Source: Ignavibacteria bacterium
Lineage (GTDB): Bacteria; Bacteroidota; Ignavibacteria; Tepidaquicellales; OLB5
DNA length: 37,996 bases
Assembly: GCA_031430615.1 (NCBI GenBank)
Contig: JANPBV010000071.1
Span: 1-37,996, forward strand
Reading direction: 5' to 3'
The notes under the pieces were generated by a model that was given only the letters and a program-made list of their open reading frames with translations, did no database searches and had not been told where the DNA came from. How positions within the stretch are numbered: position 1 is the first letter of the stretch; each line of letters opens with the position of its first letter. Shown here piece by piece: positions 3,099 to 19,180 of the stretch. A program made the position numbers and the translations under genes.

Positions 3099-3917
3099 AT
3101 GAAAAAATTCTCGGGCAGTTCAAAAAAAACAGCGATATACTTTATTATGTTTCTGGCAGTAACTGCTTTTTTAAGCTATGGTTATTTTGCGGGTATCAGC
3201 GGCAGAACAAAAAAGGGAGGGTTTACCGCAGGTTGTGAGTGTCATGGTAAAACCCCTTTTAGTAATGTGAATGTAGTTATATCAGGTCCTGATACAATTT
3301 CCCCCGGCGAGACTGTGAATTTCCTCCTGAGCATAACCGGGGGACCTTTAACAAGAGGCGGAACCGATATAGCTGTAATAAGAGGTACGCTGAATACAGT
3401 AACTGGTTCTGGTTTAAAAAAACTAGATGGAGAGCTGACACATGAGCAGCCAAAGGCGCCTGTTTCAGGGAATGTCAGTTTTCCGTTCAGTTATACCGCT
3501 CCTCTTACTGAAGGAACAGATACAATTTTTGCAAATGGCAATAGCGTAAATTTTGATATGCTTCCTTATAATGATAACTGGAATTTTGCCAATAATAAGA
3601 TACTCGTTATTAAAAACCCAATTGGTATCCATGTCATTTCTTCTGATACACCGGAATCATTTGAACTTGAACAAAATTATCCCAATCCTTTTAATCCAAC
3701 AACAAAAATCCGGTTCAGTATCCCGGCTTCTTCGGATGCAAATATTACGATCTATGATGCAGCAGGGATAGAAGTAACTACTCTCATAGATGAAAGGTTA
3801 ATGCCGGGATCTTTTGAAGTAGATTGGAATGCCTCAAATTATTCAGGCGGTATTTACTTTTATGTTCTGCGTTCCGGAAGTTTCAGGGAAACAAGAAAGA
3901 TGGTTCTTATAAAATAA
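3099..3917 (+). CDS. Reeler-like/choice-of-anchor V type protein with T9SS type A CTD
   Basis: signal peptide, GCECHG motif, LTH..PK and F.YTAP segments, QNYPNPFNP...KMVLIK. Confidence 0.75.
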   Translation: MKKFSGSSKKTAIYFIMFLAVTAFLSYGYFAGISGRTKKGGFTAGCECHGKTPFSNVNVVISGPDTISPGETVNFLLSITGGPLTRGGTDIAVIRGTLNTVTGSGLKKLDGELTHEQPKAPVSGNVSFPFSYTAPLTEGTDTIFANGNSVNFDMLPYNDNWNFANNKILVIKNPIGIHVISSDTPESFELEQNYPNPFNPTTKIRFSIPASSDANITIYDAAGIEVTTLIDERLMPGSFEVDWNASNYSGGIYFYVLRSGSFRETRKMVLIK

Positions 3918-4264
3918 TACACGTGTTCCGGCAGCTTCAAAAAATTTAATGTTAACTTACTGTCACACTTAATATTAATTATAGTCAAAGAGAGTGAAAG
4001 GTTAGAGAGTGTTTTTTTATTTTAAGTTATTTAATGACCGAAATATCAAGGTGTTATTTACAAACTAAAAAAGTGGTTCTTGTAAAATAGAAGAATGTGC
4101 GATATTGCAGCGCTTGATCGAGGGCTCAGGCGAGTAGGCAGTTTAGATAAAAGTGAACTGCTGCCTGACTCAAAATAAATTCCATGATTGACCCAAGGCG
4201 GGATCTTTTGAGACAGGTGTCGCACATTTTTTTTAATGATGTAAACAGAGAACTTTGGTTTTAA

Positions 4265-5080
4265 ATGAACTATAGAACTTATATTCCCAACCCGGCACTA
4301 TCAAAATATATTAAGTGCTATTGGACACTGGAAAATCTTTACAAAGAGATCACTTTTTCGAAAGAGAAAGTTTTTCCTGATGGGTGCATTGAATTGGTTT
4401 TTCATTTTGGTGATTTATATAGAAAATATAAACGGGACGATTCAAGTGAACTAATGCCCAAAAGTTTTATACACGGTCAATTGAAGGAATTTATTGAAAT
4501 TGAAGCAACCGGGAAAACAGGGATTTTAAGTATTAGATTCCACCCGAATGGTTTAAGACCCTTTATGGCATTTGATATTAATGAGATTACAGGGCAAACA
4601 TTAAGCCTACAGGATCTTTGGGAAAAGGAAGGCGAAATACTTGAAGAAAAAATTTTAAATGCTGCATCTAATGAACATCGAATATCATTACTTGAGATTT
4701 TCCTGTTAAATAAATTGAAAAGAGCTGTAGAAAATGATAGCGTAATTGAACATTGCGTTAATTCAATAATTAAAAATGATGGAAACATTTCGATTAGCAA
4801 ACTTGCAAATAATCTGAATATTGGAAGACGCCATCTTGAACGTAAGTTTATTTCCATTGTTGGCATCAGCCCGAAATTACTTTCAAGAATCATTAGATTT
4901 CAAAATACGCTTAATTTAATTGAACATGAAAAATTTAGTAACTTAACTATGGTTGCTTATAAGAGTGGTTTTTATGACCAGGCTCATTTTATAAAGGATT
5001 TCAAAGAATTCACAGGACTCAACCCAAAGCAGTATTTCTCAGAAAATTTTCCTTTGGTAAAATATTTCAATTTAATGTAG
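4265..5080 (+). CDS. AraC family transcriptional regulator (DUF6597-type N-terminus)
   Basis: FPDGCIELVF N-terminal motif; C-terminal RHLERKF...GISPK and GFYDQAHFIKDFKEFTG HTH signature. Confidence 0.92.
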   Translation: MNYRTYIPNPALSKYIKCYWTLENLYKEITFSKEKVFPDGCIELVFHFGDLYRKYKRDDSSELMPKSFIHGQLKEFIEIEATGKTGILSIRFHPNGLRPFMAFDINEITGQTLSLQDLWEKEGEILEEKILNAASNEHRISLLEIFLLNKLKRAVENDSVIEHCVNSIIKNDGNISISKLANNLNIGRRHLERKFISIVGISPKLLSRIIRFQNTLNLIEHEKFSNLTMVAYKSGFYDQAHFIKDFKEFTGLNPKQYFSENFPLVKYFNLM

Positions 5081-9169: not shown

Positions 9170-9222
9170 CCTCACCCCTTTACAAGGTTGTAAACCCAGC
9201 CCCTCTCCTAAGAGGAGAGGGG
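9170..9222. repeat. CCTCACCCC...CCCCTCTCCT/AGGAGAGGGG REP-like element with inserted hairpin
   Basis: 10-bp stem 9200-9209/9213-9222; internal TTTACAA-GG-TTGTAAA. Confidence 0.7.
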
Positions 9223-9245
9223 AGAGGATTATTTAAAAATTAATT

Positions 9246-12338: not shown

Positions 12339-12362
12339 CTCCCCCTTTACAAGGGGGATTAA
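12339..12362. repeat. CCCCCTTT-AC-AAGGGGG REP-like palindrome
   Basis: 24 bp identical to 16621-16644. Confidence 0.8.
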
Positions 12363-12363
12363 A

Positions 12364-13383
12364 ATGAAGAATAAGAAAATATTAATAATACAGACGGCAT
12401 TTTTGGGTGATGTGATACTTGCATTGCCGATGGCGCAGACAATAAAAGCGCATTTACCTGACGCGCTTGTTGATTTTCTTTGTATTCCCGCAACATCGGG
12501 AGTACTTGCAAATCACCCCGCAATTAATAAGGTAATACCCTATGATAAAAAGGGTGGCGATAAGCTTGATAAGTTTATTGAGGTGCTTTCGGAATTAAGG
12601 GAAGAAGAATACGATATAGTTATTTCTCCTCATAGATATTTAAGAAGCGCCTTGTTGACGTATTACAGCGAATCAAAAGTAAGGATTGGTTTTGAAGAGA
12701 ATTCACTCGCTTTTTTGCTCACCAATAAAGTAAAGTATATAAAAGATAAGCATGAAATATACCGTAACCTAGAGCTTGTTAAACAAATTCCCGGGTTAAA
12801 TTATGATGAGAAGAAAGTATCGCTAAAGCCAGAGTTGTATCCATTACCGGAACAAAAGGAACATGTAAGACATTTATTTCACAGGTCAAATTTGATCAGT
12901 TTTGCACCGTGCTCAAGGTGGTTCACAAAACAATTACCGATTGAAAAATCCGCTGAAATTGCCAAAAAACTGCTGATAAATGGCTATAATGTAGCATTAA
13001 TTGGAGGTGAGTCAGATACGGATTATTGCAAGGAGGTTGAAAATACACTTAAGGATGATGCGTTGGTAAACCTATGCGGGAAGACGAGTCCGCTGGAATC
13101 ATACGAAGTTATGACACAATCAAAAGCATTAATTACGGTTGATTCCGCAGCGCAGCATTTAGGTTCAGCAAGCGGGATCCCGATCATATTGATATACGGC
13201 TCGACTGATATATCATTCGGGTTTTACCCGCTTACATCGAAATATAAAATTTCTGAAATTGATTTACTTGAGTGCAGGCCATGTACTGATCACGGCAGGG
13301 ATAAATGTCCATTAGGGCATTTTAAATGTATGGCTGATCTGAGCGCTGAGAAGATAGTGAACATGATGGAAGAAATTATATAG
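12364..13383 (+). CDS. GT9 family LPS heptosyltransferase (WaaF-like)
   Basis: IQTAFLGDVIL, NLCGKTS, DSAAQHL, CRPC...CPLGHFKCM. Confidence 0.9.
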   Translation: MKNKKILIIQTAFLGDVILALPMAQTIKAHLPDALVDFLCIPATSGVLANHPAINKVIPYDKKGGDKLDKFIEVLSELREEEYDIVISPHRYLRSALLTYYSESKVRIGFEENSLAFLLTNKVKYIKDKHEIYRNLELVKQIPGLNYDEKKVSLKPELYPLPEQKEHVRHLFHRSNLISFAPCSRWFTKQLPIEKSAEIAKKLLINGYNVALIGGESDTDYCKEVENTLKDDALVNLCGKTSPLESYEVMTQSKALITVDSAAQHLGSASGIPIILIYGSTDISFGFYPLTSKYKISEIDLLECRPCTDHGRDKCPLGHFKCMADLSAEKIVNMMEEII

Positions 13384-16620: not shown

Positions 16621-16644
16621 CTCCCCCTTTACAAGGGGGATTAA
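16621..16644. repeat. CCCCCTTT-AC-AAGGGGG REP-like palindrome
   Basis: 16613-16644 matches 12331-12362 at 30/32 positions. Confidence 0.8.
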
Positions 16645-16798
16645 GAAACAAAATTCGACTAAGAGGGTAAGTTAACGGAAAATGTTTGAAGAAAAAATGA
16701 ATGAATTTGGTTGGAAGGGTAAGAGCATTATAAATAGTGAAATAGAGAAGGTTATAATTTTACTTGCTTAAGTATTAATTTACGTATATTTTTGGAGT

Positions 16799-17581
16799 AT
16801 GAATTTTATATTAAACTGGCATCCGGCGTTATCAATACTTTTTCTTTGCGGGGTAACTGTATTTATTTCTTATGTGGGATTAAAGCTTGTGAGGAAATGG
16901 TTTACTGAAGATGTTTTGAAGCAAAACCATGAAGTCGGCGGGATGATATTCAACGCGTTCGGGATAATTTATGCTGTGCTGATAGCATTTGTAGTGTTTG
17001 CTACGTGGACTGAATATGATGAATCAAAAAAGAATGTTGATCAGGAAGCAATTGAGCTTTCAGATATTTATCATAACTCAAAAGCGCTGCCTGAACAATA
17101 TAAATCACAGGTTGCTCCATTACTAAAAGCATATATTGATGATGTGATTAATGATGAATGGAAAATGCTTGATGATGGTGAGCCAAGCGGCAAAGCCAGG
17201 GATAGCTTCAATAAAATATGGACATTTTTTACAACTATTGAGAGATCACAAATTAAAAACGAAATTGCTTACCAGGAAACCTTAAAACATTTAAACGATG
17301 TAAATGAAAAACGAAGAATGAGGATATTTGACAGTAAGAATAATATCCCCGGTATTATTTGGGTTGTTCTGCTGTTTGGCGCTGTAGTAATTGTGATATA
17401 CACATATTTTTTCTTTGCGAAAAATATTCGTCATCAATTTGTGATGACTTCTGCACTAACAATATTAAATACTTTGATATTGTATATGATAGTATTGCTT
17501 GATAATCCTTTCAGGGGTTATATGAAGATTGATTTTTCTCCGTTTGAATATACAATGCTTGTGATAACAAGCGGAATGTAA
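16799..17581 (+). CDS. DUF4239 (bestrophin-like) membrane protein
   Basis: four hydrophobic helices; IYAVLIAFVV..TW and LDNPFRG motifs. Confidence 0.75.
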   Translation: MNFILNWHPALSILFLCGVTVFISYVGLKLVRKWFTEDVLKQNHEVGGMIFNAFGIIYAVLIAFVVFATWTEYDESKKNVDQEAIELSDIYHNSKALPEQYKSQVAPLLKAYIDDVINDEWKMLDDGEPSGKARDSFNKIWTFFTTIERSQIKNEIAYQETLKHLNDVNEKRRMRIFDSKNNIPGIIWVVLLFGAVVIVIYTYFFFAKNIRHQFVMTSALTILNTLILYMIVLLDNPFRGYMKIDFSPFEYTMLVITSGM

Positions 17582-17595
17582 GGGGATTCGTTTTA

Positions 17596-17646
17596 TCCCC
17601 CTTTGTAAAGGGGGAAGACACACTTTAGTGTGTCAGGGGGTTGTTG
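17596..17646 (-). repeat. left REP-like palindrome flanking the DUF559 gene
   Basis: TCCCCCTTT-GT-AAAGGGGGA + GACACACT-TT-AGTGTGTC + GGGGGTTGTTG. Confidence 0.8.
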
Positions 17647-18010
17647 AAGTGCGATTTTCAAATTCAATTATCCATTTATTTAAGACATCAATTACTCTTT
17701 CCATATTTGTTTTCACTTCATCATCAGTAAACCTTATTACATTCAATCCAATTGATTCCAAATAATCCTGTCTTACTTTATCTTTTTCCTCTTTACCAAT
17801 ATGAGATATCCCGTCTATTTCAATTACTAATTTTAATTTACTGCAATAGAAATCCGCTACATATTCTCCAATTGGCTTCTGTCTCGCAAACTGGTAACCC
17901 TTTATTTTTCTTCCTTTGTTCTGCTGCCATAATAATACTTCAGCTTAGGTACCGTTGTTTCGCAGGTTTCTTGAAAATTGTTTCAGATCATTGTTGTAAT
18001 GGATTTTCAT
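17633..18010 (-). pseudogene. DUF559 / Vsr-like endonuclease with a premature TAA at codon 22
   Basis: hand translation MKIHYNNDLKQFSRNLRNNGT*AEVLLWQQNKGRKIKGYQFARQKPIGEYVADFYCSKLKLVIEIDGISH...RQDYLESIGLNVIRFTDDEV...; stop at 17945-17947. Confidence 0.88.
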
Positions 18011-18057
18011 GATTTAACTTTTCTGTCACACTTATTTTTCAATTATTAATATAGAAG

Positions 18058-18092
18058 CAACAACCCCCTTAGTCCCCCTTTATTAAGGGGGA
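18058..18092 (+). repeat. right REP-like palindrome flanking the DUF559 gene
   Basis: CAACAACCCCCTTAG-TCCCCCTTTATTAAGGGGGA, inverted relative to 17596-17646. Confidence 0.8.
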
Positions 18093-18101
18093 AGATATAA
18101 T

Positions 18102-19076
18102 CTACCACGGAGTTTTTAATCCCAAACCGGAGAGCTTGTCTTCAAACTCTAAGCGTTCGCGGTTCTTTTTGGGTTCGCCGGTAGTCTTATCAAGCCAGTT
18201 GAATGATTTACCAAGCTCAATTGCCTGCTCTTTATCACCTTTGGTGAGCGCAGTTAGTACTTCCATTTCAAGCCTGGTAAGGCTGTTTGAATTTACACGG
18301 TAATCCATGAATGCTTCCCATACAGCGGGGCACCACTTTGCAACAATTTCGTGACCCATAATTTCAGCATAACGCCTAATTTCATACTGCGCATGTGAAT
18401 CCATACGTAAATACAGGAAGTGAAGCAGGTTATGAAGGTCAACTTTCCAGTATGCTTCTGTATAGGTCGAGAGCGGCAGATCTTTCCTTGCCTGCTCTCG
18501 CGCAATACCCATCTTAAGCCGTTCATCATATATTTCACGCGCAAGTGATTGGAGGTAGCGTTCTTTTTCTGTGAGCGTTTTGCCTTCGGAATCACCTGCA
18601 AATCCGCCTGAACCCTGGCGGTTGCCGGAAGCCTGCAGGCGCCACTCAGTTTCACTTGTGGTTTGTGTGGAGTCAATTGCAACGCTATAGCGTGTTGAAT
18701 ATTCATTTACGTTTGCCGTACGGTGGCGTATCCATTGCCGCCAGCAATCCATCGGTACACGCACATGGAATTTTATCTCGCACATTTCAAACGGTGTTGT
18801 GTGATGATGGCGCATTAAGTAGCGTATCAAACCGCGATCTTCGTGGACCTTTTTTGTGCCTTTGCCGTATGAAACTCGGGCTGCCTGAACAATAGATTCA
18901 TCAGAGCCCATATAATCTATTACCCTGATGAAGCCATCATCGAGCACTTTGAATGGCTGCCCCAGGACGTCATCAAGCGCTGTGACATTTGGGCGCACAA
19001 GTGACTCCATCACCGGGTTGGTTTCAGGCGCTTCAATATATTCTTTATTGGTATTTTCTTTATTTTCTGATGTCAT
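18102..19076 (-). CDS. thyX: FAD-dependent thymidylate synthase
   Basis: AARVSY, H.TPFE, RHRTANVNEYSTRY ThyX motif, HAQYEIR; ATG 19076 preferred over TTG 19133. Confidence 0.95.
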   Translation of the reverse strand: MTSENKENTNKEYIEAPETNPVMESLVRPNVTALDDVLGQPFKVLDDGFIRVIDYMGSDESIVQAARVSYGKGTKKVHEDRGLIRYLMRHHHTTPFEMCEIKFHVRVPMDCWRQWIRHRTANVNEYSTRYSVAIDSTQTTSETEWRLQASGNRQGSGGFAGDSEGKTLTEKERYLQSLAREIYDERLKMGIAREQARKDLPLSTYTEAYWKVDLHNLLHFLYLRMDSHAQYEIRRYAEIMGHEIVAKWCPAVWEAFMDYRVNSNSLTRLEMEVLTALTKGDKEQAIELGKSFNWLDKTTGEPKKNRERLEFEDKLSGLGLKTPW

Positions 19077-19180
19077 ATTAAAATTTTGAGTCGGAATTTT
19101 TAAATTATTAAATGCAAAATAGTCAATTGGCAAAGAAGATTAAAGTCTTAAAAGTTAAAAATAGAGGGTTAAAGTTTTTA

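Follow-up and report, generated by a model that had tools for sequence, protein, structure and literature searches.

A decaying, palindrome-bracketed DUF559 nuclease gene beside thyX in an Ignavibacteria genome: candidate copy of a selfish cassette

We analysed a stretch of 37,996 nucleotides (nt) from an Ignavibacteria bacterium (GenBank assembly GCA_031430615.1, contig JANPBV010000071.1, positions 1 to 37,996 of the forward strand; hereafter, the window), in which a small minus-strand gene lies between inverted palindromic repeats in the spacer that separates a bestrophin-like gene from thyX. By its sequence, the gene is a member of the DUF559 family (PF04480), in the Vsr-like branch of the PD-(D/E)XK nucleases, with predicted nuclease activity. 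Our favored reading, toward which doubt and belief are about equally weighted, is that a selfish nuclease cassette bracketed by hairpins was inserted here at a palindrome and that the window holds a decaying copy of it; such a cassette would move by homing-like break and repair at its own palindromes, the cutting being what we infer. The plan of this cassette is simple, with an outer palindrome and an inner arm on each side and the gene for a small Vsr-like PD-(D/E)XK nuclease between them. Genomes, contigs, and loci are designated below by our own labels (G, C, and L, respectively), G000 being the genome of the window (3.53 Mb, 527 contigs).

Results

A DUF559 gene bracketed by inverted palindromic modules

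The gene extends from 18010 to 17633 on the minus strand and comprises 125 codons plus TGA, with a single in-frame TAA at codon 22 (17945-17947, TTA on the plus strand); its translation reads MKIHYNNDLKQFSRNLRNNGT*AEVLLWQQ...NRTSTTP*. With the internal stop read as X, the protein matched Pfam PF04480 with an E value of 7.1e-34 and 116.4 bits, against a cut-off of 20.6. The motifs RQKPIGEYVADFYC, IEIDGISH, and VIRF are all found in the translation, and the copy retains AE..LW, VADFYC, IEIDG..H and D, but the TAA at codon 22 cuts the gene. The residues E15, D44, E55, D57, H61, and D68 are invariant in 17 of the 17 aligned domains of the genus, including those embedded in host proteins. The solved structures closest to the DUF559 profile are 3HRL (E value, 5.8e-30) and the homing endonuclease I-Bth0305I (3R3P; E value, 3.5e-5). 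In the accessible text of Steczkiewicz 2012 (PMC3424549), Vsr, DUF559, and the I-Bth0305I homing enzyme are grouped together, and I-Bth0305I is described in that of Taylor 2011 (PMC3239194) as a dimer with a pseudo-palindromic target centred on the cut.

The two ends of the cassette are composite modules in inverted orientation. The left module (17596-17646) consists of an outer palindrome A, TCCCCCTTTGTAAAGGGGGA (17596-17615), a small hairpin B, GACACACTTTAGTGTGTC (17617-17634), and an inner inverted-repeat arm, AGGGGGTTGTTG (17635-17646, plus strand). The right module (18058-18092) begins with the other inner arm, CAACAACCCCCT (18058-18069, plus strand), which pairs with the left one, followed by TAG and the right copy of palindrome A, TCCCCCTTTATTAAGGGGGA (18073-18092). 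Complementarity between the two 12-nt arms is 100%, and the 20-nt palindromes are 90% alike; both copies of A fold as hairpins, and hairpin B is present at the 3' end of the gene only. As proposed by the sequence-only reading that preceded this work, a DUF559/Vsr-like gene with one TAA lies between inverted palindromes and its final stop codon (17633-17635) falls inside the left module, where it overlaps hairpin B and, by a single base, the beginning of the 12-mer that codes for the C-terminal TTP.

The palindrome pattern occurs at four sites of the window and at none in 100 shuffles, and a hairpin fold is predicted for all four palindromes, with z scores of -2.8 to -4.3. The arm CAACAACCCCCT has two occurrences, versus a shuffle mean of 0.11, and two were reached in 0 of 100 shuffles. 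A chance origin of the repeats is ruled out by these shuffle tests together with the proximity of hairpins to DUF559 genes as compared with random windows (see below).

The site is polymorphic and this copy looks recently inactivated

The cassette is flanked on the left by the gene for a bestrophin-like domain protein (16799-17581, plus strand; PF14023, formerly DUF4239; E value, 6.9e-53) and on the right by thyX (18102-19133, minus strand; PF02511; E value, 6.8e-53). We compared this convergent gene pair in 18 genomes, namely, G000, 16 others of its genus, and G022, from a neighbouring genus. The cassette, an insertion at this site, is present in 3 of the 18, with stop-to-stop spacers of 526 nt in G000, 511 nt in G001, and 606 nt in G004. 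Empty sites, which the sequence-only reading had envisaged here, were found as short spacers of 31 to 52 nt in seven genomes (G017, G010, G020, G019, G014, G002, and G009), and the spacers of the remaining eight consist of 97 to 519 nt of unrelated sequence. G017 and G010 have a spacer of 39 nt that consists of one degenerate palindrome. The left half of this palindrome aligns with the left half of the left palindrome of G000, and its right half and the next ~10 to 12 nt align with the right half of the right palindrome of G000 and the sequence after it. The occupied site therefore has a palindrome on both sides of a unit made of hairpin B, 12-mer, gene, and 12-mer. With regard to a target-site duplication, as left by transposons with terminal inverted repeats, the flanking palindrome is present in two copies at the occupied site and in one at the empty site, but the two copies differ, in the loop in the window and by a compensatory pair in another cassette, C301. 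Hairpin B is identical in G000, G001, and G004 and the adjoining G-rich arm is nearly so, and the genes are 69 to 78% identical. The orthologous cassette of G004 (locus L023; C60, ~13190-13310) adjoins a tandem array of three right-end modules of 39 nt each (ACAACCCCCT, 3 to 4 nt, palindrome, AGATTA).

The orthologues of G001 and G004 are intact and both end in TTP*, coded by the 12-mer; codon 22 of the G001 orthologue is Leu (TTA). Four public sequencing runs were compared as assembled contigs, in which starts, ends, and rare empty alleles are not visible. The TAA is present in the contigs of X1, the probable source of the window, and of X2, and X3, a sister sample, has a T>A change at 17945 that yields TAT (Tyr). 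The stop is therefore real and still polymorphic. Since the TAA coexists with TAT and the orthologues are intact, the window copy looks recently inactivated, which agrees with the sequence-only reading. In-frame stops occur in 6 of the 87 DUF559 match rows of the genus. On a tree of the LeuRS core, the three carriers are not nearest relatives, and the sisters G013, G016, and G005 are without the cassette.

DUF559 genes are associated with C-first hairpins within and beyond the genus

To describe the flanks of DUF559 genes, we define as C-first a hairpin with the pyrimidine-rich arm first on either strand and count only perfect hairpins with a stem of at least 7 that contains CCCC and a loop of 3 to 9. 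G000 has 9 DUF559 matches and 244 C-first hairpins, versus 24 of the opposite polarity. Fourteen of the 244 lie within 150 nt of the 9 matches, whereas random windows gave 0.38 (maximum, 6 in 5,000 trials) and the intergenic density predicts 1.0. Hairpins within 120 nt of both ends were found for 12 of 2,818 complete open reading frame genes, which comprise 4 DUF559 genes, 3 RAYT-like Y1 transposases, and 5 others, so that DUF559 and the RAYT-like Y1 transposases are the only two enzyme families bracketed on both sides in this genome. The RAYT-like genes have different hairpins (CGACCCC.., CGATGGGC.., and GTCAGGTCC..), and four of them (C257:6365-6901, C235:992-1536, C114:1380-1927, and C398:3581-4281) each have their own bracketing hairpins resembling repetitive extragenic palindromic (REP) sequences, from which it follows that G000 holds RAYT/REP systems alongside the DUF559 cassettes. 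DUF559-type palindrome classes were found at 0 of the 8 RAYT-like genes examined (of 9 matches, the weakest, C481, was omitted). A RAYT as the mover of DUF559-type palindromes is thus unsupported, and no other candidate enzyme was seen.

The same layout is general in the genus, 21 genomes of which contain 1 to 9 DUF559 matches each. Among 76 loci analysed, 69 have full flanks; hairpins are found on both sides in 35 of them, upstream only in 11, downstream only in 10, and on neither side in 13, so that 56 of the 69 have at least one. The flanks contain 105 C-first hairpins and 1 G-first hairpin. The loops on the two sides of a gene are often mutual reverse complements, as in inverted copies, and some are direct (C301 and L086). 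The class of hairpin follows the clade of the protein: on the DUF559 tree, 15 label changes are needed, whereas 300 shuffles required 36.6 on average and never fewer than 32, a test that overstates independence, since many rows of the tree are orthologues. The two paralogous cassettes C301 and C461, from one genome, illustrate how well the modules are kept, as their genes are 69% identical and their flanking modules nearly identical, with homology that ends at the outer module edges. One type of module has a fixed plan, GACCCCCTC, a small hairpin B, and CTCCCCCTT-loop-AAGGGGGAG, in which the variation in the hairpin B stem is compensatory.

Furthermore, the association crosses phyla. In 80 DUF559 loci from many phyla, 42 to 66% identical to the G001 orthologue, the density of perfect G/C-rich hairpins is 2.88 per kb up to 150 nt from the gene and 0.25 per kb at distances above 400 nt, an 11.5-fold difference. 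At least one nearby hairpin is found in 44 of the 80 loci, with hairpins on both sides in 23, and the nearby hairpins number 69, of which 67 have the C-first polarity. The palindrome TCCCCCTT..AAGGGGGA itself is found beside DUF559 in metagenome-assembled genomes labelled Bacteroidetes, Delta- and Gammaproteobacteria, Acidobacteria, Planctomycetota, and Scalindua. The combination of an enzyme gene, flanking palindromes, and dispersed palindromes, which the sequence-only reading had recognized from this single locus, is thus real, specific, and general.

The positions of the cassettes are variable. Based on the similarity of outer flanks, the 76 genus loci represent 33 sites, 19 of which are occupied in a single genome and the commonest in 8 of 21.

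Nuclease domains carried in frame inside host proteins

Several copies are embedded in host genes, essential ones among them. In the LeuRS of G000 (C293, ~3900-4450; locus L006/L030), an in-frame DUF559 domain is located between the catalytic core and the editing domain, and the ends of the insert are encoded by palindromes, with the peptide NP(T/S)PxLPEGEGAE on the left and VLPFGEDLGGV on the right. This insert, free of stops, is present in 7 of 23 LeuRS genes (those of G000, G013, G011, G009, G007, and G022 and that on C23 of G024) and absent from 16; G024, with 7% contamination, has a second LeuRS without the insert, which is outside the 23 compared. Several empty alleles contain pieces of the cassette, namely, a solo left module in G019, a right half-module (AGEDLGGV) in G010, G014, and G003, and both ends joined in G012; six have no module.

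In six genomes, the RNase H-like endonuclease domain of UvrC has an in-frame insert of DUF559 together with several modules encoded by palindromes (in G000, C503:1764-2780, L216; elsewhere, loci L060 to L064), giving proteins of 848 to 935 amino acids. The UvrC of five genomes has none of this, and that of G007 has one solo module. The UvrC of G002 corresponds to the allele of G006 minus everything between two direct TSPPTPLL(E/K)GEGSK modules, and by this comparison it looks like a module-bounded deletion of the nuclease. A third host is an N6/N4 DNA methylase (G013:C10, L065), with an in-frame DUF559 flanked by palindrome-encoded peptides. Occupancy at the LeuRS, UvrC, and DNA methylase sites differs between sister genomes. 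At the thyX, LeuRS, and UvrC sites, the cassette is present or absent in DNA that is otherwise collinear, and the carriers are scattered over the LeuRS-core tree. The inserts in LeuRS and UvrC show no intein motifs, and Rfam found no intron in the window locus; the gene is either free-standing in intergenic DNA or fused in frame.

The lone modules within LeuRS (G019) and UvrC (G007) bear on an alternative in which the modules would be small repeats in their own right, mobile or structural, with a different agent moving them, and DUF559 a bystander or cargo, for instance a repair or defence nuclease, around which repeats accumulate or which is carried along by a pair of them. That only 14 of the 244 hairpins of G000 adjoin a DUF559 gene, that genomes lacking the cognate gene have many solo copies, and that the modules are far better kept than the gene between them would also suit this explanation. 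Nevertheless, we consider it unlikely, because identical palindrome sequences accompany DUF559 in different phyla, in hosts whose G+C content ranges from 0.31 to 0.67, both-side bracketing is almost limited to DUF559 and RAYT-like genes, the 8 RAYT-like genes examined are without these palindrome classes, and the DUF559 clade predicts the palindrome type.

Solo palindromes in the window and elsewhere

Two solo palindromes lie in the window, as the sequence-only reading had noticed. One, TCCCCCTTTACAAGGGGGA (16622-16640), is in the spacer between the divergent uvrA and bestrophin-like genes, and the other is at 12340-12358; they are identical over 24 nt (12339-12362 and 16621-16644). The copy at 16622 is lineage-specific, since none of the 16 relatives examined has it in the same spacer. 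The element at 9170-9226, which the sequence-only reading had taken for a relative, belongs instead to a different palindrome family, CCCCTCTCCT..AGGAGAGGGG, and is very similar to the module located after the UvrC-embedded DUF559 of C503. In the uvrA/bestrophin-like spacer, a stretch upstream of the bestrophin-like gene (~16655-16745, taagagggtaagttaacggaaaatgtttgaagaaaaaatgaatgaattt...) is kept by most members of the genus, in an otherwise variable spacer, and may be a leader or a regulatory element. Elsewhere in the genome, several TCCCCCTT solo copies have TCCACAA about 25 nt downstream. In G040, from another genus of the same order, six short matches with 90 to 97% identity to the right-end module (CAACAACCCCCT plus palindrome) are found, for instance at C2:544683-544725; such scattered matches imply that the composite module is dispersed beyond the genus.

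At 12340, the G-rich arm AAGGGGGA ends 6 nt upstream of the ATG of the next gene, so that this solo palindrome could double as a ribosome-binding region, and in C301 and C461 the G-rich arm is 9 to 17 nt before the ATG. One might thus consider that the palindromes are expression signals for the small nuclease gene (terminators, insulators, RNA stabilisers, or a ribosome-binding region) or inverted repeats for on/off inversion. DUF559 is indeed listed, in the accessible text of PMC9881135, among the families enriched for predicted programmed inversions, i.e., flanked by inverted repeats, with an odds ratio of 14.3. We regard this explanation as very unlikely. No T-run follows the solo hairpins at 12340 and 16622, and tandem, divergent, and convergent spacers hold 119, 32, and 26 hairpins, approximately in proportion to their 252, 87, and 45 kb; terminator activity as the main role was rejected, as the hairpins have no bias toward terminator positions. 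The modules are, moreover, translated in frame inside LeuRS and UvrC. As for inversion, no recombinase gene was found beside the window locus, and no strand-switch joints were seen in the run contigs, although this last point is weak evidence.

Discussion

Based on these results, we propose that the window feature would be one stage in the life of a selfish cassette. Homing of free-standing endonuclease genes without an intron is a known comparison. In the cycle that we envisage, the DUF559 protein would recognise the palindromes of its own clade type, whether these present a symmetric duplex site or are extruded as hairpins, and cut them. The break would then be repaired by copying the occupied site through the short homology offered by palindromes or modules, in a process like intron-less homing or synthesis-dependent strand annealing. 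Recombination between the flanking modules would remove the gene and leave one module in place, and single palindromes would be either targets or scars. Invasion, decay, loss, and re-invasion would follow one another, with the window copy at the decay stage. Such a cut-and-copy process would reproduce the two palindromes around the gene versus one at the empty site, the module-bounded gain and loss in UvrC, and the patchy, decaying distribution of the cassettes.

Several observations weigh against this proposal. At the thyX site, the divergence of the cassette is about that of its flanks, the G001 region being 78% identical at the nucleotide level and the flanking proteins 77% and 87% identical. 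A cassette as diverged as the flanking genes fits an old insertion with repeated loss; as judged from these identities, an old insertion followed by several losses probably fits best there, and homing is not needed. Between different sites, the best pair of cassettes is 86% identical over 363 nt, so that no recent copying event has been caught. Homology arms of 8 to 40 nt are short for recombinational repair. The flanking modules of C301 are direct repeats that differ by a compensatory pair in hairpin B and are therefore not a simple duplication. No perfect hairpin under our definition was found at 13 of the 69 genus loci or at 36 of the 80 cross-phylum loci, and the accessible literature on the family yielded no cleavage data for any DUF559 protein. 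Finally, the numbers of solo palindromes do not follow the nuclease. The CCCCTCCWWWGGAGGGG type has 16, 8, and 7 copies in G011, G012, and G002, all without the cognate clade, versus 1 to 5 copies, nearly all beside the gene, in the five genomes with it, and the simple TCCCCCTT type has a mean of 9.0 copies in 8 genomes with its clade and 5.7 in 13 without, in a test that is crude, since the 21 genomes are related, partly incomplete, and uncorrected for shared ancestry.

The last result is central to the division of labour suggested by the sequence-only reading, in which a low-copy, mostly vertically inherited DUF559 enzyme would nick or process its cognate palindromes and spread or maintain them in trans, a REP system in which the enzyme would be of a non-HUH kind. 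DUF559 genes share their layout with the RAYT-like genes of G000, the two together making up 7 of the 12 genes with hairpins at both ends, and the palindrome type is particular to each DUF559 clade. Divergence between cassettes at different sites is 14% or more, yet the solo palindromes are identical and, at 16622, lineage-specific. G000 has the highest number of TCCCCCTT palindromes in the genus (43), with two DUF559 genes of the cognate clade, and RAYTs are typically single-copy too, according to the accessible text of PMC5581495. On the other hand, solo counts do not track the cognate clade, and the DUF559 sites are not conserved, more than half of them being single-genome sites. The gene also sits with its modules inside LeuRS and UvrC, which indicates that it moves too. 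To our knowledge, no strand-transfer chemistry is known for a PD-(D/E)XK hydrolase of 125 residues. We therefore judge this division of labour to be unlikely. A selfish cassette is the part of the earlier suggestion that our data favour, whereas the dispersal of solo palindromes by DUF559 is not supported by the copy numbers.

Extending our homing-like reading beyond the window, we tentatively suggest, as a possibility short of a probability, that DUF559 and the C-first palindromes constitute a widespread and undescribed selfish class in bacteria, in which a single-domain nuclease homes into its cognate modules and seeds them and the modules double as translatable linkers that would let it settle in frame inside proteins such as LeuRS, UvrC, and a DNA methylase. 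In the DUF559 literature accessible to our search, which had subscription journals and supplementary files outside its reach, we found no link of the family to flanking palindromes or to in-frame insertion, the nearest hint being the inversion table of PMC9881135 mentioned above. The specific, cross-phylum link to palindromes gives a testable substrate to a large family without function, and it offers a candidate enzyme for those bacterial palindromic repeat families and intragenic palindromic inserts that have no known enzyme. If our reading is correct, the nucleases in frame in LeuRS and UvrC, with no visible intein or intron, would show selfish genes occupying essential genes by a new means, which for homing genes would be the third, in-frame nuclease cassettes would be a source of new protein domains, and REP-like families would have a second, non-HUH route. 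A small nuclease with a defined palindromic site could also serve as a tool.

Comparison with known systems

Among known systems, the RAYT (TnpA-REP)/REP-REPIN systems, as described in the accessible text of Bertels and Rainey 2011 (PMC3116915), resemble the DUF559 cassettes in that a small, low-copy enzyme gene is bracketed by inverted palindromes that are also dispersed as solo copies, with one palindrome family per enzyme lineage. The cassettes differ in the enzyme, which is a Vsr-like PD-(D/E)XK hydrolase (PF04480) and not an HUH Y1 transposase (PF01797), and in the palindromes, which are of the C-first CCCC(C/T) type, unlike the hairpins at RAYT-like genes. In addition, the DUF559 gene is itself insertion-polymorphic, and solo numbers do not track it.

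The EDxHD/Vsr-like homing endonucleases, exemplified by I-Bth0305I, have the same catalytic fold and residues, a patchy presence at fixed sites in conserved genes, and nonsense decay in common with the DUF559 cassettes. In contrast, the DUF559 cassette shows no intron or intein, has no NUMOD or helix-turn-helix DNA-binding region, and encodes a single domain of ~125 residues; it has palindromic modules at its ends, is mostly intergenic, and, where it lies within a gene, forms part of the translated host protein. The other solved relative, 3HRL, an "endonuclease-like protein" of Neisseria gonorrhoeae, is an example of DUF559 proper, a family without an assigned function.

No enzyme is known to be linked to the Rickettsia palindromic elements, which share with the cassettes short modules that are read through in frame in coding regions, such as PTPLLEGEGS and LPFGEDLGGV here. 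Unlike those elements, the DUF559 modules flank the gene of an enzyme, which shares their reading frame. The insertion of Rickettsia palindromic elements and of repeats resembling miniature inverted-repeat transposable elements in frame in protein genes is covered in the accessible text of a review (PMC10969869).

Lastly, the left end module resembles an orphan RNA motif, whalefall-1 (RF01762). Other weak Rfam matches (snoRNA, miRNA, and CRISPR-DR7) were taken as chance. The whalefall-1 match at 17593-17645, the only one on the repeats, scored 19.7 bits, below the gathering score of 37, so that the module is not a member, and no such match was found in 18 other DUF559 loci. The two nevertheless have the same plan of a C-first hairpin, a second hairpin, and a G-rich tail, and whalefall-1 may be a relative of such end modules.

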